Part shown: positions 12,788 to 60,059 of the stretch, one piece after another
Layout of the letters: each line of letters opens with the position of its first letter
How positions within the stretch are numbered: the stretch's first letter is position 1
Assembly (NCBI RefSeq): GCF_964355755.1
Contig: NC_092677.1
Span: 1,324,101 to 1,388,100, forward strand
From: Antedon mediterranea
Lineage: Eukaryota > Animalia > Echinodermata
Direction of reading: 5' to 3'
Length of the DNA stretch: 64,000 nucleotides
Made by a program: the position numbers and the translations under genes
The notes under the pieces: generated by a model
Seen by the model: the letters and a program-made list of their open reading frames with translations, nothing else
The model's database searches: none
Told to the model about the DNA's origin: nothing

Positions 12788-12947
12788 GGTGTTCTCCCCA
12801 TGGTTAAACGTGTTCTCTCCATGGTTAAACGTGTTGTCTCCGTGGTTAAACGTGTTCTCTCCATGATTAAACGTCTTCTCTTCATTGTTAAACGTGTTCT
12901 CTCCATGATTAAACGTGTTCTCTCCATTTTTAAACGTGTTCTCTCCC
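12788..12947. repeat. 21-bp minisatellite (GTGTTCTCTCCATGGTTAAAC)n, ~7.5 copies
   Basis: Direct tandem units; explains the spurious ORFs 12698..12958 and 12800..13054. Confidence 0.9.
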
Positions 12948-15057: not shown

Positions 15058-15202
15058 AGCTCTGTTTACACTTTCAAACTTTATATGTCAAAAAAATGTG
15101 ATATGCCCATATGAACATGATGATGTCATATCACTACCATATTTGTTGGGCATATCACCATCATATTTGTCAAACTAGTTTGATAGTGTTGTAGACAGAG
15201 CT
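15058..15202. mobile_element. PIF/Harbinger-type MITE
   Basis: TIRs AGCTCTGT(T/C)TACAC.. / ..GTAGACAGAGCT, flanked by TTA on both sides. Confidence 0.75.
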
Positions 15203-15636
15203 TTAGATAACATGAAAAACCAGTGTATGTCACAGGTACAAAGTAATTTGTGTTGTATGTTGCCGTTTAGACGTGGGGAGTATAATACGTGTTCATTATT
15301 AATTTATTTGTTATTCCAATTTATAGGGTGTGTATTTTCAATATCCTGCTATTACAGTATGTTTACATATAATACATGTGTGTTTCATCCTTATTAACGG
15401 TACGTTTAATCATGAAGCTACAGTATGCAATTGTTCAATGATTTATGTAGAATAAATTTTCGAAATACAGGTATATTTCTTGATCGTAAAGTAAGAGCTT
15501 ATTAAAATGTGCACAATAAATGAATTAAATAATTAAACATTGATTAATAATTTTCTCCTAGTTTTATTTAGCACATGTACTTGTGTAATATTGACAGCTT
15601 GGGAGATGTTTTAATTATTTTATTGGCCAACATTCG

Positions 15637-16188
15637 GCATCTGATGTGGTGCTTTTGTAGAGTTAGGGAAAGGTAGGCAGGCAATAGTAATACAGCATCT
15701 CATGTGGTGCTTTTGTAGAGTTAGGGAAAGGTAGGCAGGCAATAGTAATACAGCATCTGATGTGGTGCTTTTGTAGAGTTAGGGAAAGGTAGGCAGGCAA
15801 TAGTAATACAGCATCTGATGTGGTGCTTTTGTAGAGTTAGGGAAAGGTAGGCAGGCAATAGTAATACAGCATCTCATGTGGTGCTTTTGTAGAGTTAGGG
15901 AAAGGTAGGCAGGCAATAGTAATACAGCATCTGATGTGGTGCTTTTGTAGAGTTAGGGAAAGGTAGGCAGGCAATAGTAATACAGCATCTCATGTGGTGC
16001 TTTTGTAGAGTTAGGGAAAGGTAGGCAGGCAATAGTAATACAGCATCTGATGTGGTGCTTTTGTAGAGTTAGGGAAAGGTAGGCAGGCAATAGTAATACA
16101 GCATCTCATGTGGTGCTTTTGTAGAGTTAGGGAAAGGTAGGCAGGCAATGGTAATACAGCATCTCATGTGGTGCTTTTGTAGAGTTAG
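15637..16188. repeat. 58-bp minisatellite, ~9.5 near-identical copies
   Basis: Unit GCATCT(G/C)ATGTGGTGCTTTTGTAGAGTTAGGGAAAGGTAGGCAGGCAATAGTAATACA starts at 15637, 15695, 15753, etc.; no spacers. Confidence 0.97.
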
Positions 16189-17022
16189 ATTATGGTCTAT
16201 GGTATACTACTGTAGGCAATACATATGATGATGTTTTATTACTAAATTTCCCTTTGATCGGGCCATACTATGATATAATTATTTCTATAAATAATGTATC
16301 ATAGTTTATTTACAGTACAAAACAGAAACAGTTGAATAGAAAGTTGATTCATAGCAATTAACATGAACTAAAGGAGTTACATATTATATTGCTGGATTCT
16401 TGATAAGAGCTTAGTTCAGAAAACATCTTCCCATTTTATAGTACATTCTATACACCCTGGGTTACCACGGGCAGTTGGGTTGAAACCCTAAGATCAATCC
16501 TGCTTACAGGCCTGATTTAACTGAAGCAATATACGTTAGTAATCTATTCTATAATCTAATCTAAGAAAACCAGCAAAGAAATTATAATAATATTCACATG
16601 AATTAGTTCATATAATAATTATATATCAATGTAATTTAATTTTAAAGAACAAAATAAATTTAATAACATAATAATTTAAAACCGAGCTTCATAACCCACT
16701 ATACATTTATATTATTATTTGCACATACTCTTTCGAAACTATTTCAATCATAATAATTTGTTTGTTTAATTAAAAAAAAGATCTTTTAAAAAAAATCTTA
16801 AAAAATGTAAATTTTGCAAATCTCTATGGCTTTCAAATTATTTATAAAAGTTTTTGACAATACAAATGTTTCTTACACATCTCTTGTTGTATTTAATCTT
16901 TAAAAGCTAACGATTACTGTATAAAAATAAATTTCATATTTAAAAAAATCATCAGTTGTTATCCAGAAGATTTAAATATAACACAAATAAATATGAAAAT
17001 AGAAATGGATAATAATACTCAC

Positions 17023-20000
17023 TTATTGAAACAAGCTATTTTCTTATCTGTACATGAAAAAAAAACACATAATAATAATAATAATAATAATAACAATAAT
17101 AATAATAATAATAACAAATAGTGATTAAAGACGCTGTGGACTTACATAATCCTACCTGTATGGTATAAATCAATCTAACATGAAAACCACAATATTCCCT
17201 GCAAGAAACTTTTCAACAATTGTTGTTATACTAGAGAGGTTTCGCAATCTTACGAATACGATAACGAATACGGATACGTCACGCACACGTATTCGTTTTC
17301 GTAAGCCATAAAAAAATCTGTTTCGCATGGCAACGAAATATTGAGGCGCGTCCAAAATATGACTGCGGTAGATTTGAGCGAGGCCGCAGGTACGTGTTGC
17401 TTGGTGCTTGCTACTTTAGTAAATTACTTTCAATAAATCTATAATTATATTATAATCATGAATCATTCCTGATTCAAATGCAAAATGTGCAAAATAGATC
17501 AAAAACTATACTCGTTTTGTAGTTTTGAATATGACTGGTGATATTCGTCAACACGAATACGCTTTACGAATATGAAATGGGGATCAGCTCAAAAGTTTCA
17601 CAAATGTATGACGTATCCGTATCGTATTCGTAAGGTTGCGAAACCTCCCTATTATCAAATTTGTTGCTGCCTTTTTTCAAATGTTTGTTTTTATATATCT
17701 TTGGCAATAATACGAATCCAGTATTGTTTGATTTTAAGATAATTCAAATAAAAATAATATTGGAGTTTAATGATCTACAGTACCAAACAGTGTGCAGTTG
17801 TATAGGTTCTTAAACATGCACAACAATTATATTAACTTTATTTGATTAAATAGAAATACAGTTCTCCATCCAAATCTAGAATAATCTATGATTTATTTTA
17901 TAAAATTAAGTTAGTAGTATTAGTAATGTTGTAAGATACTATTTCTGTCATATAAAAGTTTTATTTTGGATATTTTATATTCATTAATTCAAGTATTGTA
18001 GTGATCTACTAGTATCTACTTACACTGACAAACAAAAATTCCGATAAAAACCAACACCACTGATACTGCAGACACAACCCCACCTATAAAAAGGTATCAT
18101 TACATAAAAAAATACAATATATTTTCTAAAATAAAAGTCACTCAGCAATGATGTTGAAACAAAATGTTTAAAGTAACAGCTTTCTAAATCAAGAAAATAT
18201 ATAACATGTCAATATGGATAAAAGTACTACAGCTTGACTTAGCTGGCCCTCCCACCTTTCTCCTAACGTCCAAACAATTTGATAATTATTAAAACTTTTG
18301 CAGCACTGGATAATCTTCTAACATAGCACCTCGGTTAAGTTTACTTACCAATACCGAAAGTTTTTGTTAATTATTATTTTTCCACACATAAACAAAATAA
18401 AAAAGATAATTATATCTATCAAATATTAGTAATAACAAATGTGAAAGGAGATCAAAATAAATATGTAAAGATTAGCCTTGACCACTTGAGCAATTGTGGA
18501 CATGACAAATAAAGTAAATTTAAAGAAGAAACCAAACAATATGAATAGTAGCGGGTCAATTTTAAAGTTCATAGTAATTGTGGCTAAGATTTAACTGCTT
18601 CTGGATTTGTCAAAGGATCTCATACCATTTCAACTAAGAAAATTTAAAATAAATAATAATAAATAATTCATTAATAAATTCATAGGTGTGATTACTTGGT
18701 TTTAAAAATATTTTGGGCAATGAGTAAAAGACATTCATAGTTTTGGATCATAAGCATTTTTAAATATCTTTCAATTGAAATATTTATGTTTTGGAGTTTT
18801 CCTAAAAAGACTCACCTATTAAACCACCATTTACACCATCATTGGGATCAGTAGGATCAAAAGCTGTAAGTAATACAAAAAAAAATATTTTAAATAATAA
18901 ACAAACTTAGCAGCAATTATAAACATGAAAATTAAATTCTACAGTATATTAAAACCAGGTAACAAACTGTTTAAGTTTGACATTACTGTACAGTACGTAC
19001 ATTCACAAGTTTGTTTACACATTATACTTATTTCCAAGATGGACTGAGCAAAATGAGGCCAAGTATTTTTTTGCAACCTAGAAGGGTTTTAAACTTTTAA
19101 AAATTTTGCAGCTAATACTAAACATTACAAGCATACAATATAAAAAATATAATGTGTTTGAAGCATTTATATATGTAGTATAGTGTTACATAATATAGAA
19201 TATGTTTATTAGGTAAAAATAAACAGTATATTATAATTATTGAATATAGAATTGTATGACTAATATTTTTCAAACCTTTTTATTTAGTACATTACTTTCA
19301 AGTTTTGTCATTGAATGACAAAAGCTATAATAAAAATGGTGATAATAGCATTGATTGTTGTTAGCATAGCTTCTGTATCTAATGTACAGTGTATTATTAC
19401 AGTATTATTTATAGGGTTAGTGACTTTTACAGTATGTTTTTTATTTGAAATTGTTGTTAATGTTAATAACCATGGAGGAAAAGTTAGTTTAGCAATTGGA
19501 TTAACAATTATTTGATGAAATTTTCTTGAGTAAGTACTCAAATTAACTAATTAGATGACCATAATATATTACAGCCATAGCTTTTCAATAATTTTTATAA
19601 TTTTGTCAATATGAACTTTTAAGATAATCCCTGACAGCAATCAATTCCTAGACTTCAATGATAATCAACATTTTAAAATGGCCGGGAATTTCCCTTTTCT
19701 AAAAATTATACAGGAAGGATCTTGCTGTGGTAACACTAGCTTAAACCAATATAATTAAGTAAATTAACAATATAAAATAATACTAATTTCTACAAATCAA
19801 CATAACAAATTAAAAATAATAATTGATCACACAATTTCCAATAGAAATGAATACAGACAAATTGTACAAAAAGAATACAAGTGGCAACATTTTTAATAAT
19901 GTTTAAATTAAAATTAGACATTATGTTAGCAATACAATAAATGTGTATAAGCTGACAAATTTAGTTGGGTATGGTATGATGGACATCCATAGTTTTTAAG

Positions 20001-23000
20001 ATACTGTATACAAATGACTTAATTATTATCTGAATTAAAATTGAAATACATTCTCACTCATTTCACAATACAAAAATGAATGTATAATGACAACAATTTA
20101 ATGAAAAAATATAAATTGATATTTAAATTAACTTGTATACTGTGTCTACAGTATACTATCACAATAAAACCACCACAAATCCCAAAATGCCAAGATATTT
20201 TGTTTCATTTTTTAGCAACATACATGGGATCATAACACAATTCTGGCTTTGGAACAGGGGAGTTAACTGTATAATAGAAAAACAGGTTAGAAAGTGAGCC
20301 CTGATTTTTACACCATAGAAATCATATTGAAATTTACAACACCAGTATTTTGAATAAAAAGCAAGTAAAATGAATAAAGAGATGTACCTGTACAAAAACA
20401 ATTCATGTCAATGAATTTGAATTTATATAAATTATGCTGTATGAAATAGAATACAGAGTGATATCAACTGATTGGAAACTACTATATCACAAAGTGTAAT
20501 CTAAATCTAAAATAGGCCTACTAAATTATTACTATTGAATACTAAATAAACTAGTGCTGAACTAAAGCTGAATTCAAACTTGTTGTGAAATAGTGAAAAC
20601 TACAGTATATTAAATGAATATATAATAAATGGCGAAGGAAAATTAGGTGTAATTTGGGCTAATTACAACCAGTGTCTGAAGGTACTGTAGCTACTGTAAT
20701 CAGATTGGTTAAAAGTAGCTATACCTTTTTCTAAGCTAGCGAAAATATCATCATTAGTTTAAAATTAGAAAATGAAGCAATGGTAAATTAAGTTGAAAGT
20801 GGGAATTTGGGCCATCATAATAAAATATATATTCTAGTTCTTTTATTTACAAAAATACATATAAATATACAGATTCATAAAATTGGCCATAGCAATGTAA
20901 TTTGAAAAAAATTAAAATAAAGAATTTATACATCAAACAATACCATTTTGAACAACAATTTATGCAAAACATATAGAATAGCTCTTTAACATGAACATTT
21001 TAAGTGAAATTGCATGGGATTTGTATGAGAGAAAATGTATACAATTTGTTGCAAGCATCATTTATAACAGCAAATTATCTAAGGGACGGTGCCAAATTGG
21101 GAAGTTGACGAGTGGCCTCCCTCAAGGGCTATTACTGTATGGCGCCGCCCCTGTTATTAAAGAACATACCTAAAGTGGTAGACAATGTCATTGCAGTTAC
21201 TACACTCTCGGTTAGTGTTATATCCTCTGTGATACAAATTAAATATTAATCCATTTAAATTTGATATAATTCATTAAACACAATAATAATTTATAAAACC
21301 AACATACTGTATAGGGAATTACAGTATGTTTGGTCAAAAATCAAGTACCAGTACCAACTAAACCAAAGTAAATGTAAAATGTATGCTAGCCTTGTGTTTA
21401 ATATGAAAGCAAAACCTTCTACTAAGCTTCTAATGAAAACGGTGTACATAAATCTAAGATATAAAATATTAAGTCCAGAATTGCACAAAGATAATAACAC
21501 AAACTTGTACCACAAATGACTCAACATTATCCATAATACTTGTCCATAGCATACAATAGAATCTATTGAACACAAGTGTTGGTACAGAGGTTAATTGTCA
21601 AAGCTTTATTACTAGCTATATGGTAGAAATCCGGCTATGGTATACACTCACTATTCATCAATAACTAATGACTGAGAATTAAAGGTTCAGAATATTTTTA
21701 AAGTTGATTTGGAGTGTGTAGGGAGCTAACAGAAGATTAATATAAACAAATTACAAGCTACAGTAAGTAATACTACAGTATTTCAACTTGAGGATATAAA
21801 TGTTATCATGTTAAATTGTTGGGTACTGTAATTAACAGGAACTGTTCACACATTATTTTTAACGGGACTTAAAAATATCAAATAAAAAGTATGCATGGTA
21901 TTATTTTACCATTTCGGTTTGGGGTGGTGGAGAAATTAAAACATTTTTAACATTTTAACTTTCAATTGAAAAAAATGGAATACAACTGGTGCACAATTAA
22001 CCAAAACATTAATTTCTATTTTTCAATGGTTTTGCTATGGTTAATAATTTAACCCATGTCATCATAGTTCAATAATATATAATTAGTATATAATTATAAA
22101 TTAGTGTTCAATAATTAAGTTCTAAATCAGCGGAGAAGGTTCCCAAGATAATGTACTGTACAAATGTACAAAGAAAGTGAGTAATATAAGCATGATAGCA
22201 TATTAAAATACAGGAGCAGGGGGTGCAAGGGGTAGGCAGCAATGTTAAGGAGGTATATGTAGTCGATTGGGTGTCTGTATGTTTTCAATATTTTTATTTT
22301 TTCACACTCATGTTGTGAGCTAAATCCCCTATCTGCCCCTGTATTCAATTATGCGTGGTACTAGTACTACTATACTTGAATGTGCCATTTATACTATACA
22401 AAAATAGCCAATTACACATTACTACTTACTTGGTGTTGACATTTGTTCTGTAGTAGGGGCTGAAAACCAAATTTATTATTACTTTTATATTAGTTCTCAT
22501 AACTTGTCTACTGTAGAATTTAGAATAGAATTTGTAAGTAAAGGCAGTACTAGCATATGAATACAAATATACATGCATACAGGCCCGTATGCAACATTTA
22601 TAATGGGGGGGTGCGAGCGAAGCGAGCAACAATGGCCGCGGCAAAATTTGCGTTATTTGACGTTCTAAAGATTGATTTAAGACTCTTTGTTGTGGCTTGG
22701 GCTAGTTGAACGATGGACACCAGAACTTAACGCTTTCATGATGTTTAAAGGCCAACTCAGACAGCTTCCTTCCGGCGCCGTATTCGATAGTGTCTGTATT
22801 TCCAGACACGTCTTTACCACCGACGGTTAAGTTGTCTGTATTTCCAGCAAATTTTCGCGTACATGAAGCGCTAATTTTAGCTATTGCTTGTCGTCACATG
22901 ATCGACTGCGCATGTTTTACATCGAGTTTGTAGTCAGTTCAGATTCCGTAATTTAATTACCGGTATTTTTTCATTTTATATTAACATATTTTTGTTTGTA

Positions 23001-26000
23001 TACCATTGATAATGTAAATTTTGTATATATATAATGATATTGTCTTTAGTTAAACAAGACAAGAAAAAATACCAACCGAGGAAATAGTGGACCTTTTGGG
23101 ACTTGGGAGGTGCGTCTGCACCCAACGCACCCCCCCTGGCCTGGCATAAAATATACTGCCATGCTTTCTATTTTGTTTTATTTTTGCAAAACCCCTCCCT
23201 CCCTTTACCACTTTATTTAATAATATTTATTCAGCAATTTTCATTGCAAATCAAGATCAACATCACAATCAATTGAATTTCTAACAAAATTAAAATCAGC
23301 GTGTCAATAACACTGATTTATATATATATATCCCAATTTTGACAGCAACACACTTAAAATAAATTGGTTCATTTTTTTTAAAACAGAACTAATTTCTTTA
23401 AATCTCTTAAAAAATTATTTGACCTCTATCATTATAAAAATTTTTGTGTAAAAATCACAATATGATTTCAATGGTTTCAAAATACATCTCACAATAAATA
23501 TATTACTTTTTTTCGACCACAGAGAAATGATAAGAAAAAAATAAAAAACAAAAGTAGCTAGAAATAAAAGTTTTAAATACTTAATAACACTCAATAATAA
23601 TTTGAAACAAAAATAATGATCAGAGCCCTTCATTTAAAAGGACACTGACACTTTTCCTGAGAGCAAAAAACAAAATTGAGGAAAGATATTGAATTATTTC
23701 CTCTTATTTATTTAAATGAAGGTTTGAATAATATATCCATGTTAAAGCTACAGGTACAAAATAAATTTTACTTACAACCTACTGAGAGTTCGAGAGGATT
23801 ACTATGTTTTCCTTCTTCTCCACTGTAAGCAGCATTCTCTGCTACACAACGATAACTTCCTGCATCCATTTGATCAACTTTATTAATAATTAATATTGAA
23901 TCAGAAGATGGATATTTTTCTCCATCAGAATCATCAATTTCAACATCATTTTGTGTCCATCTGACAGTAATTGATGTTGGTTTACCGATAAGATTAGTAC
24001 ATGTGAATTTTGCGGTGTCATTTATCATGACAGATAATGTGTCCGACTTCAAAACGGGGGTGTCCAGATCTGTAATATAGTAACATAATATTAAATAGTT
24101 AGCTTTCGCATCAAGACGGTAAGCGAAAGGGGATGGTAAACAAATGGTAATTCATACAAATATTAATCAGCACATGTGTATAAAAGCCCAGTATACTACC
24201 GTATATTTCGGTGTATAAGTCGCACTTTTGACACGCAAATTTGACCTCTAAATTAAGGGTGCGTCTTATACACCGAACATAAATGCCTCACCACACAGAT
24301 TGTACATATCGTCACCTCGTTGGCTAGGCCTGAGTAGGCTAGCGTAGGCCTAGCTTCAGTGTACTACAGTAACATAACGGCAACCTGCTTCTGCCTAGTT
24401 TTCAAGGCATTTTAGCGTGATGTTATACTAAATATGATGAAAAGATTTGTTCATTATGGAGCTGTTTTAGGCGCTCCGATAAAATTTCATTTGTAAACGT
24501 TTTGTTTGTTTTATCTTTATACTGGGTGACCTCTTCAGTCAAAGACTGATCTCCCAGAGGGCCCAGTTGGTGATCAGTGGCTGTGATGTACTAGTACACC
24601 GGGGTAACCCCCTACTCGTCTCGAAAGATGTACTAGGTTCTTTAAAGTGCACACGAGCAAGTTGTGTACACTGGACCTACGGTTTATAGTCCTTATCCGA
24701 GAAGACTCGTTCTACCACCAGAACCATGGAGTGAGTGAGCCTCGAACCCCTGCCGATGTTATGGCTACGTGATTACGGTTCCACTGTCTTAACCGCTCGG
24801 CCACTCACTCACTTAAACGTTTACGATTGGAATAGGCCTAGTATTTATTTATAGTTATACGCACGATCGCCGACCGCCGTACCCCCAGCGCAAGCCCTTC
24901 TTGGCGGCGGCCACATGGTGTACGGTATTCGACTAGTATATTCTCCCTCTCGAAATGATCGAGCGAGGCTAGCCCACACACGTGCGTGTTACACACAGTC
25001 ATGCACTCGATGTTGCGGGTGCAAAACTCATGAATAACAAGTTAGAAAGAACTTGTTGAGAAAAAACCTAAATAAAGGACGCCGTTGTAGATATAACAAA
25101 ATATATTATTACAATAATATTGATTACAATTTAAAAAAACATTGTTTTGATGAAATATAATGTGCGTCTTATACATCAACGATATAAAAAATACCGATAT
25201 TTTACTCTCAGTTAGGGGGTGCGTCTTATACACAGGTGCGACTTATACACCGAAATATACGGTATGTTTATTTGACAAATTAGATGTTGAAGGCGTTTCT
25301 CTCAAATTTGAACTTCATTCTAACACGTTGCCCTTGGATAGAAGAATATCTAGTTGGTGTGAAGAAATAAATGGTATTGTACTCTTTACAATAATTATCA
25401 AGAGCAAACTGTACCTCATTTATGTTTTCATCATGTACTGCTCTCTCTAACACAAGGGTAGAAGAGTTAAACAAACTGAAACATACATTTCATAATAATA
25501 TCTGGAGTGATTTTTCAAACACATCAATTGTAATGTTATGTTTTAGGGTCATCAACTATTTCCCTACTCAAGGAAGTAGAACTGATTTTTTATTGAAATT
25601 GAAATTGAAATTGAAATATATATTTATACTGGGTAACCTCTTCAGTCAAAGACTGGTCTCCCAGAGGGCCCAGTTGGTGATCAGTGGCTTTTGTAAACTT
25701 ACACTAAGAGGGCTTTGAAAATACGAGCCGAAATTAAACATTTCCAATCTATAGTTTAAATCTGTATTACTGAGTAAATGCTCTCATGTATTCTGTATGA
25801 TATACTTGTTTACTTTAATTGTACATCTGAAGTATAATTTTAGATTTTTATTGTTAGTACTGTTTTACTTATTGTATTGTTAATATTTTCGGGGTAATGT
25901 TTCCACTTTTACAATGTATGTGTATATTTTTATAGATTTATTTTAATGTTGTTGTTTTGTTTACACAAAGCACCTATTATCATAGAGTGCCACCGATAAA

Positions 26001-27170
26001 AAGGTGCAAGTTCAAATAAATATTATTATTATCGCGACTGTATTTGGTCCATTTAACATTTGGTCTGATAGACAGAGCAACAACAAAAAATGGCTAGTCT
26101 TCATCCTCACAAGCCTTTTTAAAAGTTCTGATTAGGTTCAACCTTTTGAACTGCTAGCCTGGCAATAGCAGAACTTCTCAAACATCCACCATGACAACGT
26201 GTCAGGAAATAAGCGTCATGCTCAGTTTATTACCGTTCCCTTCGTTTACTGTCCTGATTCGAAAACTCCCCATAATATCTTAAATTCAACAGATGGCTGA
26301 CTAACTGTATCTTTGACTTTTTTTAAATAATAGTGATTATTTTAACTACAGATATGGACACATTTATTCATACTTACATTGAACAGTAAGATTTCCATTG
26401 TTTTTACCAGATAAAGTAGCTAAATCAACAATTCTACATAGATAGTATCCATCATCAGACAACACTGTGTTTGCAATGGTGAGAGTAGTTACACCAGTTT
26501 GTGTGGTGTCAGCTGTATATCTACCATTTTGATTTGTATTTGCAGTATTAACAAGGATATCTAACTGATCTCCATCTGAATTACTATTGTACCATTGAGC
26601 AGCATTAAATGTTGAACCACTGAGTGTATAACTACAGGTGATAACAGCATCTTCACCTATTTTAACATTAGCATCTTGTACATTGACAACAGGTTCAGTT
26701 TGACCATTTATAACTATATACACAAAAAAATAAATGTACATAAAAAAAATCCATTGCTCCTGTACAAACAATAAAAAATAAACTTACTGTATGCTTTCAA
26801 ACTGTAATCACGAGTATGCCTTACTTTTTAAATTTAAGAGGCGAACAATTTATTGCACACCAAGTACATGGACCTGTTGGCAGTGTAATACTTCCATGTT
26901 TGCTATCCATGTTTTTTCTTTTTTAAATTGGCATACATACATATTTGGTTACAGTAATATACAATAATGTTGTGCATTTAATATATTATAACTTTGTGCA
27001 TTATAAATACATTGTTTTGATCAGTTATAAAACAACAAAAAATGTGTTTTATATCGATTATTATTTAGAAGTATAGTTAGCATTTATAGGAAGCATTTAT
27101 TAATACAAAATTTACCATGGAAAGTAGCAACAGCAAACAAATTAATGAGTACACAATTTCTTGTAATCAT
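17023..27170 (-). CDS. Spliced type I membrane Ig receptor (leader-IgV-Ig2-S/T stalk-TM-short tail), inverted relative to the cluster, with a unique membrane/cytoplasmic module
   Basis: Phase-1 GT-AG exons: leader 27170-27116 (MITRNCVLINLFAVATFH), IgV 26713-26378, Ig2 24069-23779, stalk 22459-22430 (PTTEQMSTP) and 21226-21170 (DITLTESVVTAMTLSTTL), 18863-18816 (FDPTDPNDGVNGGLI), TM 18083-18024 (GGVVSAVSVVLVFIGIFVCQ), 17047-17023 (YKKIACFN). The final exon is not securely identified, and the small exons are less certain than the Ig exons. Confidence 0.72.
17232..17651. mobile_element. MITE with ~32-bp TIRs
   Basis: TAGAGAGGTTTCGCAATCTTACGAATACGATA / TATCGTATTCGTAAGGTTGCGAAACCTCCCTA. Confidence 0.8.
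22580..23143. mobile_element. Probable non-autonomous DNA transposon (CAGG..CCTG ends)
   Basis: GC-rich ends CAGGCCCGTATGC..GGGGGGGTGCG and CGCACCCCCCCTGGCCTG; TSD not clear. Confidence 0.45.
24199..25262. mobile_element. Non-autonomous Tc1/mariner(pogo)-type DNA transposon
   Basis: Perfect TIRs CCGTATATTTCGGTGTATAAGTCGCAC with TA flanks; internal GGGTGCGTCTTATACAC repeats; no transposase ORF. Confidence 0.9.
24503..24813 (-). mobile_element. tRNA-derived SINE with Deu/Nin-like central domain, nested in the mariner element
   Basis: Minus strand has an A box (TGGCCGAGCGGTTAAG) and a B box (GGTTCGAGGC). Core GGATAAGGACTATAAACCGTAGGTCC..TAAAGAACC..GAGTAGGGGGTTACCCCGGTGT; TSD TAAACGTTT at 24494 and 24814. 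A second 3' fragment lies at ~25590-25690. Confidence 0.82.
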
Positions 27171-30814: not shown

Positions 30815-32612
30815 TATAAAGAAGCAATACCAAATATGGTAGGCCTAAATAGAAAAATAATGTAACTAACGATATTATTTTTTAAGACTTCAGCTCATCT
30901 CCCTCCACGGCCATTCTTGCGAACTGAAACTAATGCACGGTACTACAAACTACATATTCGCAATAATGATGGTTAAATTGTTACAGTGACAATCATTTGA
31001 CAGGGCCTTCTAAATCATCTAGTACGAACTCGAATTTTACGGTATTTTAAATAAGATTCAGAATAAGATTCACTATCTCTCTGGTATAAGATCTGAATCT
31101 GAAATTGGCTTTGAATATATGTGTTTACCAAGACCCCTTTTACCTTTATCAATTGCATCCATCTTCTGAAAAATCAAACGTCAGAATGTTCCAAATATTC
31201 TTTTTTTATTTGTCGCCCTCTTTTCAATTTATATTAACTATCAGTATAGTCAAAGATCGATCTTTGCTATACTGTATAGTTCAATCTTTTGCCATCGATT
31301 CATTTTAATTAATTTAATACAGTTGACTGTAGTATATGCACGCGCACATATATATATAATCACGATGATTAACCTATTTGATTAACAAAATAATTAACGA
31401 AAGTTTATTGTGCTTATTGATATAATGTTAACGTTAAAATAAGAAAGGAGGAGTGTAGTATATGCACGCGCACATATATATATGCGTACTGCGCATATGG
31501 TCTGACGAGGTTAGCCTACAAAACGTTCTATACTATTGTTCATGACTACTAGTTGGTTTCATTAAATACGTTCATTATTATACTCATCTCAACGTACTTA
31601 TTAATTTGTCTACGACGATACACGACATTGACATTATCCTCCAAACAGTGTTTACAGATTGTTTACTTTCTTGTTATGTAAAACTACTTGCTATAGGCCT
31701 ACTATATTGTGAACGATACATATAGGGATAGTGGGAATTAATCCAAACAATTGGACATGTACATAGTTACCACGAATAGTACTGTGTCACAAAGGAAGTA
31801 AAAACAAATGTAAATGAAACCGGATTCAGAAGACACAAGAACCACCACACCAGTCATATTATGTACTATAGAGTGTCAAGAGTGATATAATTTTGGATTT
31901 TCAGGTTGTTAGGCGCGGCGTGACCTTAACAGAAGGAATGGCGATATGTGTGTGTGCACTAATTTTCCTGATTTTCCAAATTAAAGTGAATGTAAGTAAT
32001 CATTTTTAATATAATTTTAATAACAATAAAATTTATTATGTTTAAATTAATATTACAAGTATATATAGAAGATAAGTGTGGCTTTAATTTGTTTGAATCG
32101 AAATTTAGAGTTTATGTTACCGAAACATTTAGCTTGTTGCAATTAAAGGGTAATCCGACCTGTTGTGTATAATATCACCGTGATAATATAATATTTTTTT
32201 AAAGTAAAATTTGTATTAGAATATCAAATTAATTTAGTACTGTACATTACTTGCGTTTTTTTATTGGTGAAAAAATAAGTCCCACAGGTTTAATCGGTGC
32301 ATGTTTTCAACGTTTATTAATTATTATTGTCTTTAACACTAAATAATATTTAATATACAAAAGTAATTTAATAACTAGAATTTAATTCGTCACTTTGACG
32401 AATTATAGGTGATGATCATTGTTATCCTTTTACTGAAATTAATTTTTTTTAAACATGCACGTACGTTAACATAGGATAAAAAAATGTTGATGTATACCAT
32501 CCTATTATATGCTTATAGTGCTGAGTTCTGCCTATTATATGCCATATACAATATGTACAGTATTAGGTGAAATTACGGGACACACATGTTCTAATTTTTT
32601 GGTATGATGGAA

Positions 32613-34039
32613 TCTATATATAAATTTACGTAAGGGCAAAATTCGGTAAATCGCGCCTTACTTCTAGAATTTTTACTCGATGGTATATAAAGTTGGTTCG
32701 TACTTTCGGTACTGATTTTAACCGCCTGATGTAACCCTGTTTACTAATTAAATTAAGTTAGATAATTAGTTATTGACGATTAAAACGAATTTAGGTTCAA
32801 CGATTTGCCCCAAATAGGGGTGTTTTCCGATCGTGGTATACACTGTCTAATGGATGTCCATCTTGAAAAATACCCGCCACAAAAATACGAGGAGGCTTCG
32901 CATTTTCCTATCTCCTCCTACGATAATTGTTTTTAATAGCTGAAAACTGGTTGAACAGCTAGAGTACAGCATCATAATGTTGAAGACAGGCCGATTTTCT
33001 TTAAAAAATACTATTTTGATAGATTTAATATACAATTATACAAATGTATTGATTTGCGATGAATGGAACATTCCAATCTCTGTTTCACAAGTGTCTATTC
33101 TCTCAGGCGTCGTAAAGGCAAGTACAGTACTGTATACTCGAAATTCGATCCATTTTTGTTTTCAATCTGTGCTGCAGAGGTTGGATATTATTTTTTTTAA
33201 ACGGATAAAGAGCTAGCGTTTTCACTCGCCGTATATTATGTACAAGTCTTTATTATTGCAGTTAAACCACCCACATCATCACCTTTCCCTCACTGGCATG
33301 AGTAGCGTTGTAAAACCAGTAGAGAATAGGCCTACGGTACATCACATGCCCTAAACGCAGAACAACTTTGGTGGGTAGGGTAGGAACCAACTTAAGTATG
33401 AATTGGCTCTAAGAAACAATTGAAAACCATTAGGCCTACTAATTAATTGAGTTAGATAATTTAATATTTATTGACGATTAAATCGAATTTATGATTTTCC
33501 CCGAATAGAGGTGGTTTTCACAAATTGTTTTACATTATATTATAAACATATACACGTCGTAGTGATGTATCGTTACATGTGCTGTACTATTTCAATCGAC
33601 TAGGACGGTGATAGTTTCAACAAGTATTACATCGCAATGTTTTATTGTGTTTAGTGGTATATTATTTGTAAAACATGAAAGCAATTAATATTTCGTTACT
33701 AAATGGATAAAGAATATATTTTAACATTGTTCCTCTTTGCACCCATCCTCTTCCCCATCCCTCAACCCTAATGTTACATACAAAACACAAATTAAGTTTG
33801 TTTAAATTTGACTTAAACAATTGGTCTTATTTTGTTACAAGTTTCTCTTTCGGAAGTAATAGGGTGCTAATTTTAGTTGAGTACATAAATCACAGTGTCT
33901 ATTTATTCGTTCCTGTAAACGACACACGGTATTATTGTCCTGCGGTACGTACATTTGAAATCGCCAGTTTTTTAACGCCGAAATTATTATGTATTCGAGA
34001 ACCATCTGTGGGCACGACCTAGATGGTACGCGAGCGAAG
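32613..34039 (+). mobile_element. Helitron-like element, copy 2 (3' hairpin truncated)
   Basis: Shares the first ~460 bp and last ~450 bp with copy 1 in inverted orientation; the middle differs. Confidence 0.75.
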
Positions 34040-35268
34040 ATGACAAACTCAAAGATGACAATTTCGAAAGAAAATGAATTGAGCAAATAAATATAAGAAT
34101 TGGAAGAGAATCTGGCACGTAGAAGCGCTGTGCATAACTTTGACGAAAAAGATGAACAACTACTTCTTAACTTCATCTGGCCATATGTTAACGTCACAAC
34201 ATCCGATAGGCTTGATTTTTATATGAATTCATATCTATATTTCATCAGCTTTCATAATAGATTATAATCATCAAGGTAACCTTCAATTCTGAAGAGCTGT
34301 AAGGTATTCAAATTTACGGCAAAGGTGAAATTACACGACCTACGTAATTCAAGTTTTTACGCATGATGACGTCATCAAAATGAAAATGGTGTCAACTCAT
34401 GATAAAGATAATTAATTAAGCAAGCACATACTGAAATTTGTGTGAAATTCGAGCACACATAACCGAGATGCGCTCTGTTGAATGTGATAACCTACACAAA
34501 AAGATAAAAAGTGTAAAATGTGTACATGATATGAATTCATATTTACAACTCAATGGCTTCCCGAATAAGTTAAACAAATTGGGGGTCATCTTCCATTCTG
34601 AAGAATTATTTTCATTTTAAAAAGGCCTATTTTTCACAATTTTCAGAACTTTTGAGAAATTAATGTGCGCATTTTGTCATTTTTAACGTGCTCGTATAGC
34701 GTTATTTTAAGTCGGAATGGACTCAAAATCAGTGAATGTACTAAGAATTGTGAGTAGAATGTGATATGTACATCAAATTTTATTTTTACGTTTTTTAGGA
34801 ATCGCTTGCGCAGTAATTTTTTGAAACACGCAAAAGGCCTAATTCTTGCTCTAAATTGATCAAAACTTAATTTTGAGCTTTATAAATTTTAAATGCGCGA
34901 TTTCACGCGCATGACCCTACGTTCGCGTGCGTTTTTTTTTTTTTTGCTAATATTTTTACTCTTGACCTGAAGTTTACGTGTAGTGAATTTCATTATTATG
35001 TGATAATTAATTATGGAGATATGATTGATAATGTGATTTCACAAAATGGCGTATAAATGACGTCACGGATGAGTGATCACGCTGAAATGCTTATTAGGAC
35101 TAAGTTACAGTCCAATTGAAAGAAATTGTGAAATTTTGGTAATCATTGACATTTAACTTTTTGAGATATTTGTTACACAAAAAGTGTACAGAAAGAAGAA
35201 AAAGAAAAATAATAAAGATTTTATACAATAACAATAAGTGATCATTTTATTCTAAATGATCACCTAAT
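34040..35268. mobile_element. Unclassified interspersed repeat, possibly Helentron/HINE-like
   Basis: CpG-richer block ending in an AAG-rich tract and a small GTGATCATTT..AAATGATCAC hairpin; it truncates Helitron copy 2. Confidence 0.4.
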
Positions 35269-38248
35269 TAGTTATATTCTAGGTATCAGTTTTTATTGTT
35301 TTCATATTCCGTTATGATAATTACTTTATTCCTATATACCATTTACTATTATGTACTAATTTGATTTTAGTTACTTTTTGTTTTTGTTCAGGCACTTTCA
35401 ACACAAGCTTTTGCTTTCCATAAATTGTGCCTCCTTCATAATACTGTATTGTTTTATTCATTTTAAAGATGAGAAGAAAAAAAATTGTATTGTTTTAACT
35501 ACCTTACTTCTCGTTATTATGAATTTTGTATTGTATTATTTATATTTTGTATATTATGAAGGAAATAAATGAAATATGTTGATATCAATTTTGCGGTTAG
35601 GCCTATAGTAGTTCTGAAAAGAAGTGGAGTTTCTCGACGATGAGTGTGATTCGACTGTCCTCAGGGTGAGAATGTAGGCAGGGTCCGGGGTAATGGGGAA
35701 TATAGTTGCCTTATTATAACCAACTACTTTTTTATTTATATTTGTTTTAAATTATACAAACTACACTAGCTGAAGATTCGTTATAGGTTGTTTTTTAAAT
35801 ATAAATTTATATAAATTAAATATAAGCCATGTTGTTATTGAAGGCGTATTTCACGAATTGTATTTATTGATTGTTTAATTCTTGTTTTCATTATACATTG
35901 CTTTACCCATTCATTTGTGTGTATATAGTTGTTACAAAAGGTCAAAATCCTGTTGTCAATGTGCAAGATGCTAACGTTAAATTAGGTGAAGATGCTGTTA
36001 TCATCTGTGATTACACACTTGATCCTACCAGAACTTTTCAGGGTGTTCAATTGTTCAATAGTAATTCAGATGGAGATAAGTTGGAAAAACGTCTTATTAA
36101 TACTTTACAGTCAAATAGAAATGGTAGATATACAGCTGACACCACACAGACTGGTGTAACTACTCTCACCATTGCAAACACAGTGTTGTCTGATGATGGA
36201 TACTATCTATGTAACATTTTTGATTCACTTCTTATCAGTGGTAGTCAACATGGAAATCTTACTGTTCAATGTAAGTATTAAAATGTGTCTCAATATCTAT
36301 ATTTAAAATATACTTTAAATAGTGCTGTATAATCATTACTAAAACGTATCTGTATATGTTGAATAAAGATCATTCATTACAGATCTAGAAAACCCTGTTT
36401 TGGAATCAGATGCATTATCTGTCAAGATAAATGAAACGGCAACATTTACATGTACTAACCTTATCGGTAAACGAACACCAATTATTGTCAGATGGAAAAA
36501 AAATGGTAATGCACTTGATGATTCTGATGCAGAAAAGTATCCATCTTCTGATGCAACATTAATTATTAATAAAGTGGATGAAATGGATGAAGGAAGTTAC
36601 CAGTGTGTAGCAGAGAATGCTGCCTATAGTGGAGATGATGGAAAACCGAGTATTCCTCTTATACTCTCAGTAGGTTGGTTGCAATAAAGTTGTTAAACTA
36701 AAGATACAATATCATATTTTATTGAGATCATAGCTATAATTATTATATGGCACCCAAGGGTCTATCATAATTAGACGGATTATTTCAACAATTATGTATT
36801 ATGCGGTAATGGAAATAAAGCACAGCTACACAGTTTAATTATAAAAGGCCTTTTTATAATATAGAACAAGACAATATATACAACCAATAGATGCACTGAC
36901 TATGTTTAAATAACATAGTCATATTATACTTCCTATTTCTTTAGCATTGCCAACACCTTCTTCTACATCCAGTAGGTCAACTACACGTACATTTCGTTTG
37001 TTTGCATTGCACTAATAGTTTTCCATTTTTAGGCCCTATAATTTTGTGAATAAAAAATATGACCTGTGTATATTTGTTATGTCACAATCACATGGTAACT
37101 CTGATCCTCCTTGTAAATCGTTCGTACACAGAAATTCCAAAAAGTGAGGGCATATGTAATTCAACTGGTCTTGTTGTTGGACGTTTGTTGGTGTGCTAAT
37201 TGGATTCATTACCTGTTTGCTTGTGGTTTTTATCATCAGCAAAATCGCAGGTAAAGTATAATTCAGAAAGTAGAACCAAAAGAGTAAAATAGTTGAAGGT
37301 TTGGTGAAATACCGTCACAAGTAATGGCAAATGTATTATCATTCAATTTACTTTTGATGTTTTATTTTTAAAGGCACCGACATCAAATAATGACAACCAA
37401 TCAGGAGTAACAATGCTATACTTCAACTTTAATTATTGGCTTTCACTTTGATCATTATCATCATTGTCACCAATACACAATAAATTGTGATTTATCTTAA
37501 TTTATTAATGATTCATTGTAATTCATTTAGCTGCAGAGGAGTATATTACGTGTACTGGAGAGGCAGATAAAGAAACAAACCACACGTACGAAGATTTACG
37601 CTGAAGAAAGACGATAACCAAGCTGTATATGTAAATGTTAAAGCAAAGAGGAACAAACAATAATACATGTTCACTATAAAGTTAGTAATACATTATAATT
37701 ACAATGGTTTAAAACAATCACACTGATTTTAGTAAGTATGGAAATATAGAGCAACATGTGATGTAAAGATGAAAACCATAAGACATAATTGAACAATTTA
37801 AAAAAATAGAAAAATGTAAAAACGATACATTCAATTTTATTTCTAGTTTGATTTTTTAGAATTAAAATATATATTATATTACATATGTATGTATTAGACA
37901 GACATATAAGGTATAAGGAGAGCATAAGAAGGAAAATAAACTAGCCAAATTCTAATTTTGTATATGATGACATAAGTTTGTAAAGCATGTGAAAAACAAT
38001 TGATTGAAAAAGAACATATTAAAATCTAGGGCGAAATGGAGTAAGCATAAGCGCAATGCGCTCTATTAAATAAAATTACTATAGTACTAAAGCGAAAAAC
38101 AATTTTTAAATTCGAGTGGCCATACTGTGACGTCAAAACATCCGAAAGAGAAGCTATATGTTTTACATGAGTTGATATTTAAAATTCATCGGTTTCTATA
38201 ATACAATTTAATAAATGGGGTAGCCAGCCATCCTGAGGAGCTATAACC

Positions 38249-46212: not shown

Positions 46213-48212
46213 ATGTCCTTCTTAACAGAAGTAATGGCGATATGTGAATGTGCACTAATTTTCCTGATTTTCCAAAGCGACTGTAAGTAGAAACTTAATT
46301 GTCATATATGTTATTAGTAGGGTCCTACTATTATTTCAACATAGACTATAAGACTGAAATGGCAATGGACGGTGACGTAGTAACCAATTTTTATTTATTG
46401 TATTGTTTGTATTAATTGATTGGTTTCATTAAATATATTACCACGCATTCATTTTCTGTGTATATAGTTATAAATGGTCAAAATCCGGTTGTCAATGTAC
46501 AAGATGCTAACGTTATATTAGGTAAGGATGCTGTTATCACCTGTAGTTATACACTCAGTGGTTCAAGAACATTTAATGCTGCTCAGTGGTACAATAGTAA
46601 TTCAGATGGAGATCAGTTAGACATCCTTGTTAATACTGCAGATACAAATCCAAATGGTAGATGTACAGTTAATATCACAACAACAACTCCTCAAAGTGGT
46701 ATAGCTACTCTCACCATTGCAAACACAGTGTTGTCTGATGATGGATACTATCAATGTAGAATTATTGATTCATCTACTTTCTCTGGTGAAAACAACGGAA
46801 ACCTTATTGTTCAATGTAAGTATTAATAAATCCACGAATGATATACTGTATATTTAAGTCATTTAAAAAATAAATTTTGTAAAAAAGGCAACCATCATTT
46901 TAATACTTGGTTTTGTCATTTCAGATCTGGAAACCCCCGTTTTGAAGTCGGACACATTATCTGTGAAAATAAATGAAACCGCAACATTTACATGTACTCA
47001 ACTTATCGGTGAACCAACACAAATTACTGTCAGATGGACACAAGAGAATATTGCACTTGATGTTTCTGATACAGACAAATATCCGTCTTCTGATGCAATA
47101 TTAATTATTAATAAAGTTGATGAAATGGATGAAGGAAGTTACCAGTGTAGAGCAGAGAATGCTGCTTACAGTGGAGATGAAGGAAAACCGAGTAATCCTC
47201 TCGAACTCTCAGTAGGTTGGTTGCAATAAAGTTTTTATAACTAATGATATAATAATATCATGTTTTATTGAGATCATAGGTATATTCTATGGAACCAAAG
47301 AGTCTATCAAAATGAGACGGAATATTCCAACAATTATGTATTATGCGGTAATGGACATAAAGCACAGCTACACAGTTTAATTATAAAAGGCCTTTTTATA
47401 ATATAGAATAAGACAATATATTAAACCAATAGATGCACTGACTATGTTTAAATAACATAATCATATTATATACTTCCTATTTCTTTAGCATTTACGACAA
47501 CTTCTTCTACATCCAGTATGTCAACTACACGTACGTTTCGTTTGTTTGCATTGCACTAATAGTTTTTCATTGTTTGGCCCTATAATAATAAATATGACCT
47601 TTGTATATTTGTTATGTCACAATCAAAATGGTAACTCTGATTCTCCTGTAAATCCTTCGTACACAGAAGTTCCAAAGAGTGAGGGCGCGTGCAATTCAAC
47701 AGGTCTTGTTGTTGGAATGACGTTTGTTGGTGTGCTCATTGGATTCATTATCTGTTTGATTGTGGTTTTCATCATCAGCAAAATAAGGAAGACAAAATCA
47801 CAGGTAAAAGTATAATTCAGAAGGTAGAACAAAAAAGTAAAATAGTCGAAGGTTAAGTGAAATACCGTCATACGTAATGGCAAACGTATTATCATTCAAT
47901 TTACTTGTTGATGTTTTATTTCAAAGGCACCGACATCAAATAATGACAACCAATCAGGGGTAAGGAGACTAAACTTCAACCTTAATTATTCGCTTTCACT
48001 TTGATCATTACCATCATTGTCACCAATACACAATAAAGGTTTGCATGATTGTAATTCATCTTACTTTACTGTTGTATTTTTTTTAGCAACAGGCGTATAT
48101 GACTTACACTGGAGAGACAGATAAAGAAACAAACCACACATACCAAGATTTACAGAAGAAAGAAGATAATCAAGCTGTGTATGTAAATGTTAAAGCAAAG
48201 GACAACAAATAA
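46213..48212 (+). CDS. Intact spliced IgV-Ig2-TM receptor with Tyr-motif tail (V type A, Ig2 type A)
   Basis: Exons 46213-46282 (MSFLTEVMAICECALIFLIFQSD), 46468-46815, 46925-47215, 47489-47515, 47667-47803, 47927-47959, 48087-48212. All GT-AG, phases 1,1,1,1,0,0, open to TAA. Confidence 0.85.
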
Positions 48213-52600: not shown

Positions 52601-52708
52601 TACCGAAAATCGGCTGACTTATCTCAGGAGTCGGAGTAGTCATGGTTTGTAATTTACAAGTCTGTAATCCTGCTGGCTCTGACGCGATTCATTTTCTTTA
52701 CAGATTTA

Positions 52709-55475
52709 ATGGAGGGGATATATGGTGTAATAATAATTCTAATGTTTCAACTATGTTCTTGTAAGTAAGAAATTAGAAAACAAATAAATAAATAATTAAA
52801 ACAAATAATTTAAAAATAATAATAATAAAAATACAAAACTTTCTCGAAACACATAAATAAGTAATTAAAACAAATAATGTTAAAAGTGTGATGTAGAATG
52901 TTAATTTTAGTTAAAATGCTCAGCAGATGTGTCTGTGATTGAATAGAAATGTTATACTTGAAATGTGAAAAAGAAGGTAGGTAATCGAATTTCGCTGACA
53001 TTTTTAAACAAAAAATGTCAGCGAAATTCGATTACCTACCTATAGATTTTTTTCTATGTCAAAATATATAAATTCATATCATGTATTCTATTTCAGTTTT
53101 AAATGGTCAAACTGAACCTATAGTCAATGTACAAGATGCTAACTTTAAAGTAGGTGAAAATGCTGTTATCATCTGTGATTACACACTCGGTGGTGGTACA
53201 AGAACACTCCAGGCTGCTCAATGGTACAATAGCACATCAACAGGAGATCAGTTAAACCTTCTTGTTAATAGTGCTCTAACAAAGCCAAATGGTAGATATG
53301 CAGTTGATACCACACAAACTGGTGTGGTTACTCTCATTATTGCAAACACAGTGTTGTCGGATGATGGATACTATATATGTAGAATTGTTGATTCACCTGA
53401 CGTTGAAACTGGTGAAAATGTTGGAAAGCTTACTGTTCAATGTAAGTATGAATGTTTACATCATTTAACAATGAATAAATATTTTATATTAAAAATAAGT
53501 GTGATTGTGAACAGAATGGTGGTCTTTTAATGTTTACCAGTGGCTTACCAATAATCAATTAATATTTTATTTCTCAGAATAAATTGCACATAAAACTAAC
53601 AACAAATATCTAAATATCTACCAAGAAAAAAATAATAATAGGAAGGGTAAGACTATCAAACAATATCGTTGGTCAAAGAGAGAAGCTATCGCTATTGAGA
53701 GTACATTATATTCAATTAATATACTAATTAAACTAGAGTATTGAACAATTTGAGAAAGTATTCATAAAAAAAGATAAATAGGGAACGCCATATAAACAAA
53801 CATCATGCCGGTACTACACTAATTGAGATACAACAATAGTCTGATGCGTTTTGATAGTTGATTTCTGGAATATACAATGCATCTTTTTAGTTTATACACT
53901 TCGACATGGTGAATGTAAGACTGTTTATTTTGCCTTTACAGATCTTGAAGAACCAGTTCTAAATCCAACAGAATTGTCTGTCAACGCAACAGAAACTGTG
54001 ACATTTACATGTTCTAACCTTATTGGTGTACCAACAATTACCGTCACATGGATCAAAGATGGCAATGAACTTGGTGTTTTTGATACAGACAAGTATCCGT
54101 CTTCTGATGCAACATTAACGATTAATGACGTTGATGAAGAAGATGAAGGAGATTATCAGTGTAGAGCAGAGAATGCTGCTTATAGTGGAACAGATGGTAA
54201 ACTTAGTAATACTGCCACACTGTCAATAGGTTGGTGGGAATAAACATTTTGATAAATAATATATTTTATTGGCATTATAGTATAAGTATGTTCTGCATGT
54301 CAAAATTATAAATGGAATATTCATATATATTATGTCATGCGGTAACAAAAATAAACCACAGCTATACAGCGAAATCTGAAAGTTTCAGTTTATTAAAGCC
54401 ATTTTTATAATATGAACGCATGACGTGTCTGACTATTGCTTGTTTGATTTATATTTCTTTAGCATTAACGACAACTTCTTCTATACCCAGTAAGTCAACT
54501 ACACGTAGGTTCTGTTTGTTTGCATTGTATTTATTGTAATTTCCGGGTTTTTCCATTTTCGTAAAGCAGGATAGGAATGGGAGGGGATATCCCCCGCCGA
54601 ATTCCAATGATCTGCATGAGTGCTTAAAAGGGAAAATAGTGATGACTTTTGTATAACATTTGTCAACACTACATTATTGTAAACATGTTTAAAAGACATG
54701 GAAACACTGATCCCTTTGTAGGCCTATGTATGGTTTAGTTGCATTGCCTTCCGGAATTTTGCGAAAAGCAAATAAAGGATAAGAAATCTGGGAGAGGGTG
54801 CAGACAGGATCTGCATGAGTGCTTAAAAAGTAAAATATGACCTTTGTATAAACATTTTTGAAATAACATGGAAACACTTATCCTTCAGTATTAATTGTTC
54901 AGTTTTAAGTACAGAAGCTCCAAAGAGTGAAAATGATTGTAATTCAACTGGTCTTGTTGTTGGAATGACGTTTGTTGGTGTGCTCATTGGATTCATTATC
55001 TGTTTGCTTGTGGGTTTTATCATCAGCAAAATAAGGAAGTCACATGCACAAGTAAAGTATAATTCAGAAAGTAGAACCAAAAGCAAAAGTGTAGACTTGA
55101 AATGACCAAAGGTTTAATGAAATACCGCACACTTAAGTAATGGAAACTATTTAAACATTAAATTTGATTTTAAAGGTACCTACATCGAAAAATACCAACC
55201 AATCAGGGGTAAGGATGTTACTTCAACTCTAATTATTCAATTTCCCTCATCATCATTATTATTATTTCTATTGTCACCAATATATCAATAAAGGTTTACA
55301 CGATAATTCTTTTTTTGCATGCACTAAACTGTTGTATTTTTTTTAGCAGCAGGCGTACATGACTTATACTGGAGAGACAGATAAAGAAACAAACCACACA
55401 TACCAAGATTTACAGAAGAAAGACGATAATCAAGCTGTATATGTAAATGTTAAAGCAAAAAAGGACAAAAAATAA
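52709..55475 (+). CDS. Intact spliced IgV-Ig2-TM receptor with Tyr-motif tail (chimeric: V type A, Ig2 type B)
   Basis: Exons 52709-52760 (MEGIYGVIIILMFQLCS), 53097-53441, 53942-54229, 54463-54489, 54903-55051, 55176-55208, 55347-55475; phase-compatible and open. Confidence 0.85.
52975..53041. repeat. Perfect 31-bp inverted repeat with 5-nt loop
   Basis: AGGTAGGTAATCGAATTTCGCTGACATTTTT-AAACA-AAAAATGTCAGCGAAATTCGATTACCTACCT. Confidence 0.95.
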
Positions 55476-60016: not shown

Positions 60017-60059
60017 TTGGACGGAAGTACAGTGCACTATAATTATGAAGGAAGTAAAA
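60017..60059 (+). promoter_or_regulatory. Putative conserved upstream block with tandem GGAAGT (Ets-type) cores
   Basis: TTGGACGGAAGTACA..CACTATAATTATGAAGGAAGTAAAA recurs upstream of gene units at ~42976, ~50209 and ~51778; related GGAAGTAAA blocks at ~31794, ~46106 and ~52175. Function is inferred only. Confidence 0.4.

Follow-up and report, generated by a model that had tools for sequence, protein, structure and literature searches.

What output does a receptor gene have when its extracellular exons resemble those of its neighbours and its membrane exons do not? This question is raised by a stretch of AT-rich animal DNA of 64,000 nucleotides from the feather star Antedon mediterranea (NCBI RefSeq assembly GCF_964355755.1, contig NC_092677.1, positions 1,324,101 to 1,388,100), hereafter the window, in which an immunoglobulin (Ig) gene on the minus strand (the window gene) faces away from a series of plus-strand relatives. 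We denote as A-type the genes with a YQDL/YVNV tail, and as B-type the transmembrane (TM) module of a paralog bearing immunoreceptor tyrosine-based inhibitory and switch motifs (ITIM/ITSM). Compared with its relatives, the window gene is a tail-less member of the inhibitory, B-type kind. We somewhat favour the view that its product is a type I membrane protein with a V-set and an I-set domain, that the gene combines A-type Ig exons with a B-type membrane module, and that the protein is likely a non-signalling decoy or damper in a predicted paired-receptor family; this slight lean applies to the reading as a whole.

Exon chain and membrane module of the window gene

The window gene comprises seven minus-strand exons (27170-17019), and all of its introns are GT-AG. 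The exon chain translates letter for letter into XP_071959074/076 (283 aa), and without the 30-nt exon 4 into XP_071959077 (273 aa); with three RefSeq transcripts, this is a real, annotated gene. A first-pass annotation, made from the letters of the window, had placed an inverted family member here, with a TM segment split over two exons and a tail starting YKKIACFN. This agrees with the gene as we find it: IgV (26713-26378) and Ig2 (24069-23776) lie opposite to the A-type units on the plus strand, the TM segment is split over 18863-18816 and 18083-18024 (GLIG followed by GVVSAVSVVLVFIGIFVCQ), and the tail starts Y/KKIACFN at 17047.

27116..27170, minus strand: exon 1, signal peptide (MITRNCVLINLFAVATFH); by eye, the leader is closer to that of XP_071958664 than to that of the 46.2 kb gene
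26378..26713, minus strand: exon 2, encoding the V-set Ig domain; identity is 86/107 aa with the IgV of the 46.5 kb gene and 28/102 aa with that of the ITIM paralog
23776..24069, minus strand: exon 3, encoding the second Ig domain (I-set/Ig_3); it exceeds the A-type exon by one codon
22430..22459, minus strand: exon 4, optional 30-nt stalk exon, present in XP_071959074/076 and skipped in XP_071959077
21170..21226, minus strand: candidate 57-nt S/T-rich stalk exon, unconfirmed; it keeps the open frame and is in neither annotated isoform
18816..18863, minus strand: exon 5, end of the stalk and beginning of the TM segment (FDPTDPNDGVNGGLI), part of the B-type module
18024..18083, minus strand: exon 6, TM core without a charged residue; 22 aa (GLIGG...IFVC) identical to the ITIM paralog
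17019..17047, minus strand: exon 7, the terminal exon's coding part, which reads YKKIACFNK and has its stop at 17021-17019
15119..17018, minus strand: putative, inferred 3' untranslated region (UTR), with AATAAA at 16310, 16240, 15624, 15568 and 15308

The exon at 17047, beyond which a last exon had been thought still to be found, is already terminal in the annotated proteins. It reads through a GTGAGT donor-like site (17022), which we infer to be vestigial, into an overlapping stop, leaving a tail of ten residues (QYKKIACFNK). Because this last micro-exon is the terminal exon, the window gene is without a signalling tail: there is no tyrosine motif in the tail and no charged residue in the TM segment, so the gene is not itself the opposite-sign receptor that had been among the proposals. 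As the first-pass annotation had stated, no YQDL/YVNV exon is visible on the minus strand; the five YQDL matches in six frames are all on the plus strand, and the three minus-strand YVNV matches are unrelated text. Nor was a trace of an ITIM exon found, either by tblastn of the ITIM paralog against the whole window or by a motif scan of the minus strand below 17.1 kb.

The Pfam families recognised in these proteins are all Ig families, and in the window gene a stalk of 13-23 aa follows the second Ig domain. The stalk before GLIGG, described earlier as the longer one, is 13 or 23 aa as annotated, against 27 aa in the A-type XP_071957513, and would exceed the A-type length only if the 57-nt exon at 21226-21170 were included, over which one RNA-like contig is shown, unspliced and at a depth of 8.9. 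A further candidate exon (20266-20224) was rejected for its wrong exit phase. Candidate last exons at 16917, 16560 and 14007 were likewise discarded: the annotated proteins end at 17019, and a K-stop is not obtained from any good acceptor.

A search with residues 222-283 of the window gene returned two proteins of 18 candidates, the window gene itself and XP_071958243, which is the one other user of the TM module that such protein searches revealed. It belongs to a single gene with three isoforms (XP_071958242-4), the ITIM paralog. The two genes match at 35/43 aa over the stalk-end, TM and juxtamembrane module, a score reached in 0 of 2,000 shuffles, and the TM core is identical within flanks that differ; the ectodomains match at only 28/102 aa in IgV and 45/97 aa in Ig2. 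The TM segment is thus not an unrelated one, as had been supposed, but common to a family member. Past the module, the paralog carries a tail of about 95 residues with VTYAQV, LTYVEV and TTYSSV, that is two ITIMs and one ITSM as defined in the accessible part of PMC5112662, and three such motifs arise in 13 of 100,000 shuffled tails. Its short third isoform, XP_071958244, ends just past the common juxtamembrane exon, and an optional stalk piece of 12 aa parallels exon 4 of the window gene. In both B genes the Ig2 exon is one residue longer than in A genes. A-type and B-type TM segments show a weak likeness (28 of 2,000 shuffles reach the score) and another exon layout; we treat them as distinct modules that may be remotely akin. 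A profile search of 1.84 billion representatives returned mainly giant Ig proteins among its best 150 matches, of which we examined eight shorter ones, and ESM Atlas matches for both tails were all under 0.9 and serve as leads only.

Four sequencing runs (X1, X2, X4 and X5), none recorded as RNA, were compared at 88% identity. X4 alone contained the exact V-to-Ig2 GT-AG joint (24069-26378), and since this joint is missing from the three other runs, X4 behaves like RNA; the joint may come from paralogs. An X4 contig, again absent from X1, X2 and X5, joined the Ig2 exon (23798) to the B-type TM exon (18087) at a depth of 334. At 98% identity X4 yielded an exact 223-base contig in Ig2 (23832-24054) at a depth of 64, compared with 9-13 for the intron pieces shown. 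Within the putative 3' UTR, X4 contigs at 16159-16584 and 15119-15399 are free of substitutions; the contigs show neither strand nor end. In the same region a 58-nt unit is repeated in tandem about 9.5 times (15637-16188). High-depth X4 contigs at 12600-14011, also strandless, were considered as 3' UTR of the window gene but more likely belong to a convergent EGF-repeat gene or its copy; they may be the 3' UTR of that gene or of a paralog.

Conflicting histories of Ig exons and tails

The Ig exons of the window gene resemble those of the 46.2 kb A-type gene at 305/333 nucleotides in IgV and 257/291 in Ig2 (BLAST E = 3e-135 and 4e-108). At the protein level this falls to 86/107 (80%) and 74/96 (77%), so the close resemblance reported earlier stands, but to call the ectodomain the same was an overstatement. 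The differences in the V exon cluster at codons 57-74 and 90-108, and both canonical V cysteines are invariant in 7/7 aligned proteins.

A protein search with the minus-strand IgV exon gave six matches among 1,295 candidates, all from A. mediterranea, the best 100% identical. A profile search gave 18 matches among 7,989 scored candidates: 13 A. mediterranea clusters, one fragment from Anneissia japonica and four generic Ig proteins. Each of the 13 clusters lists a contig 28,587,047 bases long, a chromosome-sized record. By TM and tail, two have the B module, four a full A tail, two an A-type TM with an early-ending model, one another TM, and four no TM. The full A tails read YxxL-x8/9-YxxV in 4/4 cases (95-250 of 20,000 shuffles), with YxN in 3/4. 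Charged TM residues are absent from all 12 crinoid TM segments scanned. A distant relative (Ig2 74/96 aa to the Anneissia fragment) keeps YEDL-x9-YINV; its TM and tail match at 32/86 aligned residues, and the spacing YxxL-x9-YxNV, kept despite this, suggests that the tyrosines are under selection.

The histories of Ig exons and tails do not agree. The IgV of the ITIM gene (XP_071958242) matches that of XP_071959085, which has a YQDL-x9-YVNV tail, at 100/103 aa, with Ig2 at 77/97 and a different leader. In the separate Ig phylogenies that the first-pass annotation had called for, the genes sharing the TM module do not form an Ig clade: the approximately unbiased (AU) test rejects the two B genes as a clade in IgV (p = 0.0205, 18 rows) and in Ig2 (p = 2.9e-6, 17 rows). 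These trees used LG+G4 without a mixture model, and the protein P0005 was excluded as the same gene as the 53 kb unit of the window.

Between the window gene and the 46 kb gene, dS in Ig2 is 0.092 and the next 300 intron bases are unlike (score 21, shuffle maximum 35); the similarity of the window gene to A-type genes ends 4 nt past the A-type Ig2 donor. Between the 36 and 46 kb A genes, dS in Ig2 is 0.259, yet 272/294 positions are shared in the following intron. These comparisons indicate that genes of the two tail types have exchanged Ig exons, in the manner of CEACAM or Siglec pairs; one chimeric recombination or exon-limited gene conversion would explain the post-Ig2 flank equally well. 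The earlier proposal of a paired receptor or a shuffled cassette is supported in this part, with more behind it than the letters of the window could show: the TM module belongs to an ITIM/ITSM member, and the Ig and tail histories disagree. The donor is not an unrelated gene but one of the same Ig family. The window gene is probably a tail-less member of a crinoid Ig family that resembles paired receptors.

Post-Ig2 introns are 92% identical between A genes with an Ig2 dS of 0.20-0.26 (36674-36973 and 47216-47515; 54230-54529 and 58070-58369). With such introns beside diverged Ig2 exons, tail cassettes seem to be homogenised separately from Ig exons. Two copies of a 464-nt inverted repeat (94%; 30352-30815 and 32612-33076) stand on either side of the 36 kb gene's leader exon, and a third lies upstream of the 46.2 kb gene; the repeat is a possible site of local inversion.

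Weighing of the readings

Several points weigh against the window gene as a decoy built on exchanged Ig exons. The nearest A relatives of its IgV, XP_071957513 (87/107) and the 46.5 kb gene (86/107), stand at 80-81%, the changes fall in the likely binding loops, and an IgV identity of 80% makes it doubtful that the ligand specificity is the same as that of the 46.2 kb gene. Even A genes cannot be aligned with one another in the V-to-Ig2 intron, so that only the post-Ig2 flank tests exon-limited exchange, and a mosaic test within the IgV exon (46.5 and 35.9 kb genes) gave a marginal result (a 64-nt identical tract, p = 0.051). The strict consensus of ITAM, the immunoreceptor tyrosine-based activation motif, occurs in 0/4 A tails tested, the second motif being YxxV, and the label "activating" for this tail is therefore a guess. 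Among the 168 proteins scored there was no third B-type gene and no B-type module outside A. mediterranea; the ITIM paralog is known here from its protein and not from its DNA (location, orientation, splice phases). At 98% identity X4 lacks joints and leaves the TM exon bins uncovered, which is a blank and no sign of silence, so the window gene's own splicing rests on RefSeq models, and these can mis-join tandem genes, as in XP_071958726, which starts with a piece of an upstream TM exon. The Ig2-TM joint in X4 is probably from the ITIM paralog's transcript, because its Ig2 side breaks where the paralog diverges. The decoy role, though likely, and the ligand, immune and signalling roles are predictions from sequence and vertebrate analogy.

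We consider it unlikely that the gene is instead a young chimeric duplicate that has lost its signalling exons and is drifting without any decoy role, in which case the wider family may still be paired receptors. Drift would accord with a minus strand devoid of ITIM exons below 17.1 kb, with a stop located on a donor-like site, with the many broken copies in the cluster (the 36, 43 and 49 kb units), and with an Ig2 dN of 0.139 that exceeds dS relative to the 46 kb gene, over few sites. It sits less easily with an open frame kept over seven exons with canonical splice sites despite 20-23% amino acid divergence from the nearest Ig relatives, with a 22-aa TM core identical to that of the ITIM paralog between different flanks, with an optional stalk exon that parallels the paralog's, with three RefSeq transcripts, and with an IgV dN/dS of 0.59. 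A little less credible still is a family for adhesion or recognition (of nerves, epithelia, gametes or self/non-self tissue) that does not face pathogens, in which the window gene would encode an adhesion ligand with a short tail and the tyrosine motifs would have their function in adhesion signalling. The 121 solved-structure matches in the Protein Data Bank (PDB) are led by Robo, titin and contactins, with Dpr-interacting proteins also among the best, which points this way at a generic Ig level, as does the use of ITAM/ITIM tails in allorecognition by Hydractinia Alr and Botryllus FcoR in the accessible parts of the reports on them. Judging from vertebrate examples, however, near-identical IgV domains on two tails together with rapid gene turnover fit ligand-driven pairing better than conserved wiring genes.

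We give little credence to a full inhibitory receptor whose ITIM exons escaped annotation, with AA/GTGAGT at 17022 spliced to diverged downstream exons. GTGAGT is a strong donor and stands where the ITIM paralog continues into its tail, but neither tblastn with the paralog nor the motif scan detected such exons within the ranges given above, though the TM exon is nearly unchanged; both annotated isoforms end at this exon, and a convergent EGF-repeat gene occupies 8.4-12.6 kb.

Under the favoured reading of a tail-less decoy or damper, a B-type scaffold would have acquired A-type Ig exons, either through gene conversion limited to exons or in a single chimeric recombination, an exchange that the inverted orientation would have helped, and the ITIM exons would have been lost; a shift by one base is suggested by the stop that overlies the old donor. 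By analogy with vertebrate pathways, B-type ITIM/ITSM tails would recruit SHP/SHIP phosphatases, and A-type YxxL-x9-YxNV tails Syk-like or Grb2 SH2 proteins. The product without a tail would either take up the ligand that its A-type relatives bind or form pairs with these relatives, in both cases without signalling, and would be comparable to the short isoform XP_071958244 annotated for the ITIM gene.

Cluster neighbours and known paired receptors

Plus-strand A-type units lie at about 32-38, 43-45, 46-48, 53-55, 56-59 and 61-63 kb, and close with one TM exon and a final exon that carries YQDL...YVNV.

31926..37650, plus strand: head-to-head A-type neighbour, its start codon about 4.8 kb from that of the window gene; Ig exons open
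46213..48212, plus strand: closest Ig partner, an intact 7-exon A-type open reading frame (ORF) of 348 aa, ending YQDL-x9-YVNV
52648..63182, plus strand: three more tandem A-type units with IgV at 53.1, 56.9 and 61.2 kb; an A-type TM exon and a YQDL/YVNV exon come after the IgV in each

In the 36 kb unit (pieces at 37130-37650) the TM exon has a 4-nt deletion that shifts the frame and the last exon an in-frame stop. A decayed A-type unit occupies 43311-45330, and orphan A-type TM-plus-tail cassettes, without Ig exons directly before them, lie at 49100-49650 and, at the window start, at 358-870. The RefSeq proteins P0004, P0010 and P0016 are 91-99% identical to the 46, 53 and 57 kb units without being the same, which implies further recent copies of the cluster; the protein searches returned none identical to the intact 46.2 kb ORF. 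In P0050 and P0126 the same V type is combined with additional Ig domains and with EGF repeats, so the V cassette is used in other architectures too.

The window also contains a DIRS-like retrotransposon (2961-8429) with 156-nt inverted terminal arms that are 99% complementary, an 828-aa reverse transcriptase (RT)/RNase H ORF, and two open frames, of 545 and 975 aa, that overlap; the 975-aa frame has no Pfam match, but by its motifs it looks like a tyrosine recombinase. Upstream of this element is a divergent V-set exon (Pfam V-set; 1930-2810, plus strand) and downstream are tandem EGF-like exons (8450-14011, plus strand), possibly one Ig-EGF gene split by the element. An intact 992-aa ORF of a long interspersed nuclear element (LINE), encoding endonuclease and RT (38459-41434, minus strand), is inserted between A-type units.

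In the automatic RefSeq models of A. mediterranea the same exons and proteins are annotated as CEACAM1-like, Robo1-like and JAM-B-like. These are best-hit labels that vary between isoforms of one gene, and they are silent on common TM modules, motifs and pairing. Adhesion proteins of the JAM/CTX/CAR family have a V plus C2 ectodomain and a C-terminal PDZ-binding motif; the C-termini here, CFNK in the window gene and SIKR in the ITIM paralog, do not fit this, and no JAM or CAR chain is among the best 60 of the 121 PDB matches. CEACAM N domains are not known to carry the canonical disulfide cysteines, both of which the crinoid IgV retains. CEACAM chains match as generic Ig (E = 6e-8, below Robo and titin), there is no sign of orthology, the window gene has neither of the CEACAM tails, and crinoid signalling is predicted from motifs alone. 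By these comparisons, the crinoid family is not a member of the CEACAM or Siglec families.

The likeness to the vertebrate pairs lies in their arrangement. In CEACAM1/CEACAM3 and the Xenopus ceacam pairs, as far as the accessible text goes (PMC5112662, PMC2832619), IgV-led type I receptors in a cluster carry ITIM/ITSM or ITAM-like tails with YxNx sites, near-identical V domains occur across tail types, and transcription is opposite and similarity exon-limited; in Xenopus, ITIM and ITAM-like genes stand in opposite orientation and conversion is limited to the N exon. SIGLEC11 and SIGLEC16, in the portion available (PMC5701461), are head-to-head a few kb apart, with similar V-set and next Ig exons and different TM and tail. 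Siglec-16 signals via an ITAM adaptor, whereas the crinoid TM segments carry no charged residue, and the converted Siglec tract spans a region of about 3 kb, whereas the crinoid similarity stops at the exon. Among invertebrates, Ig receptors with ITAM/ITIM tails are described in the accessible parts of reports on the cnidarian Hydractinia (bioRxiv 10.1101/2022.03.04.482883), the tunicate Botryllus (PMC12582321) and oyster (PMC11999971). Hydractinia Alr and Botryllus FcoR are, like the crinoid genes, clustered and lineage-specific, with ITAM-like and ITIM tails and short-tailed variants. Alr differs in an extra FnIII-like fold and an allorecognition role, the crinoid proteins being only Ig by Pfam, and FcoRs differ in pairing with fester proteins; these descriptions, as far as accessible, do not mention near-identical V domains on opposite tails. 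No echinoderm family of ITAM/ITIM Ig receptors was found in literature searches, which covered titles and the starts of abstracts, most subscription journals being outside their scope.

We regard as evenly balanced the wider proposition that feather stars independently evolved a paired Ig system, comparable in echinoderms to CEACAM1/CEACAM3 and Siglec-11/16. It would consist of ITIM/ITSM members that inhibit, YxxL-x9-YxNV members that activate and decoys without a tail, and pathogen or self/non-self pressure would re-match their V domains through gene conversion limited to exons. In vertebrates, paired receptors that gene conversion keeps alike are a response to pathogens which exploit inhibitory receptors. 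If true, a crinoid V pair with 97% identity and opposite tails would mean that the same design arose in a non-chordate deuterostome. The crinoid genes named here permit a direct test of ITIM/ITAM balance in echinoderm cells, to which the window gene adds a natural tail-less member.

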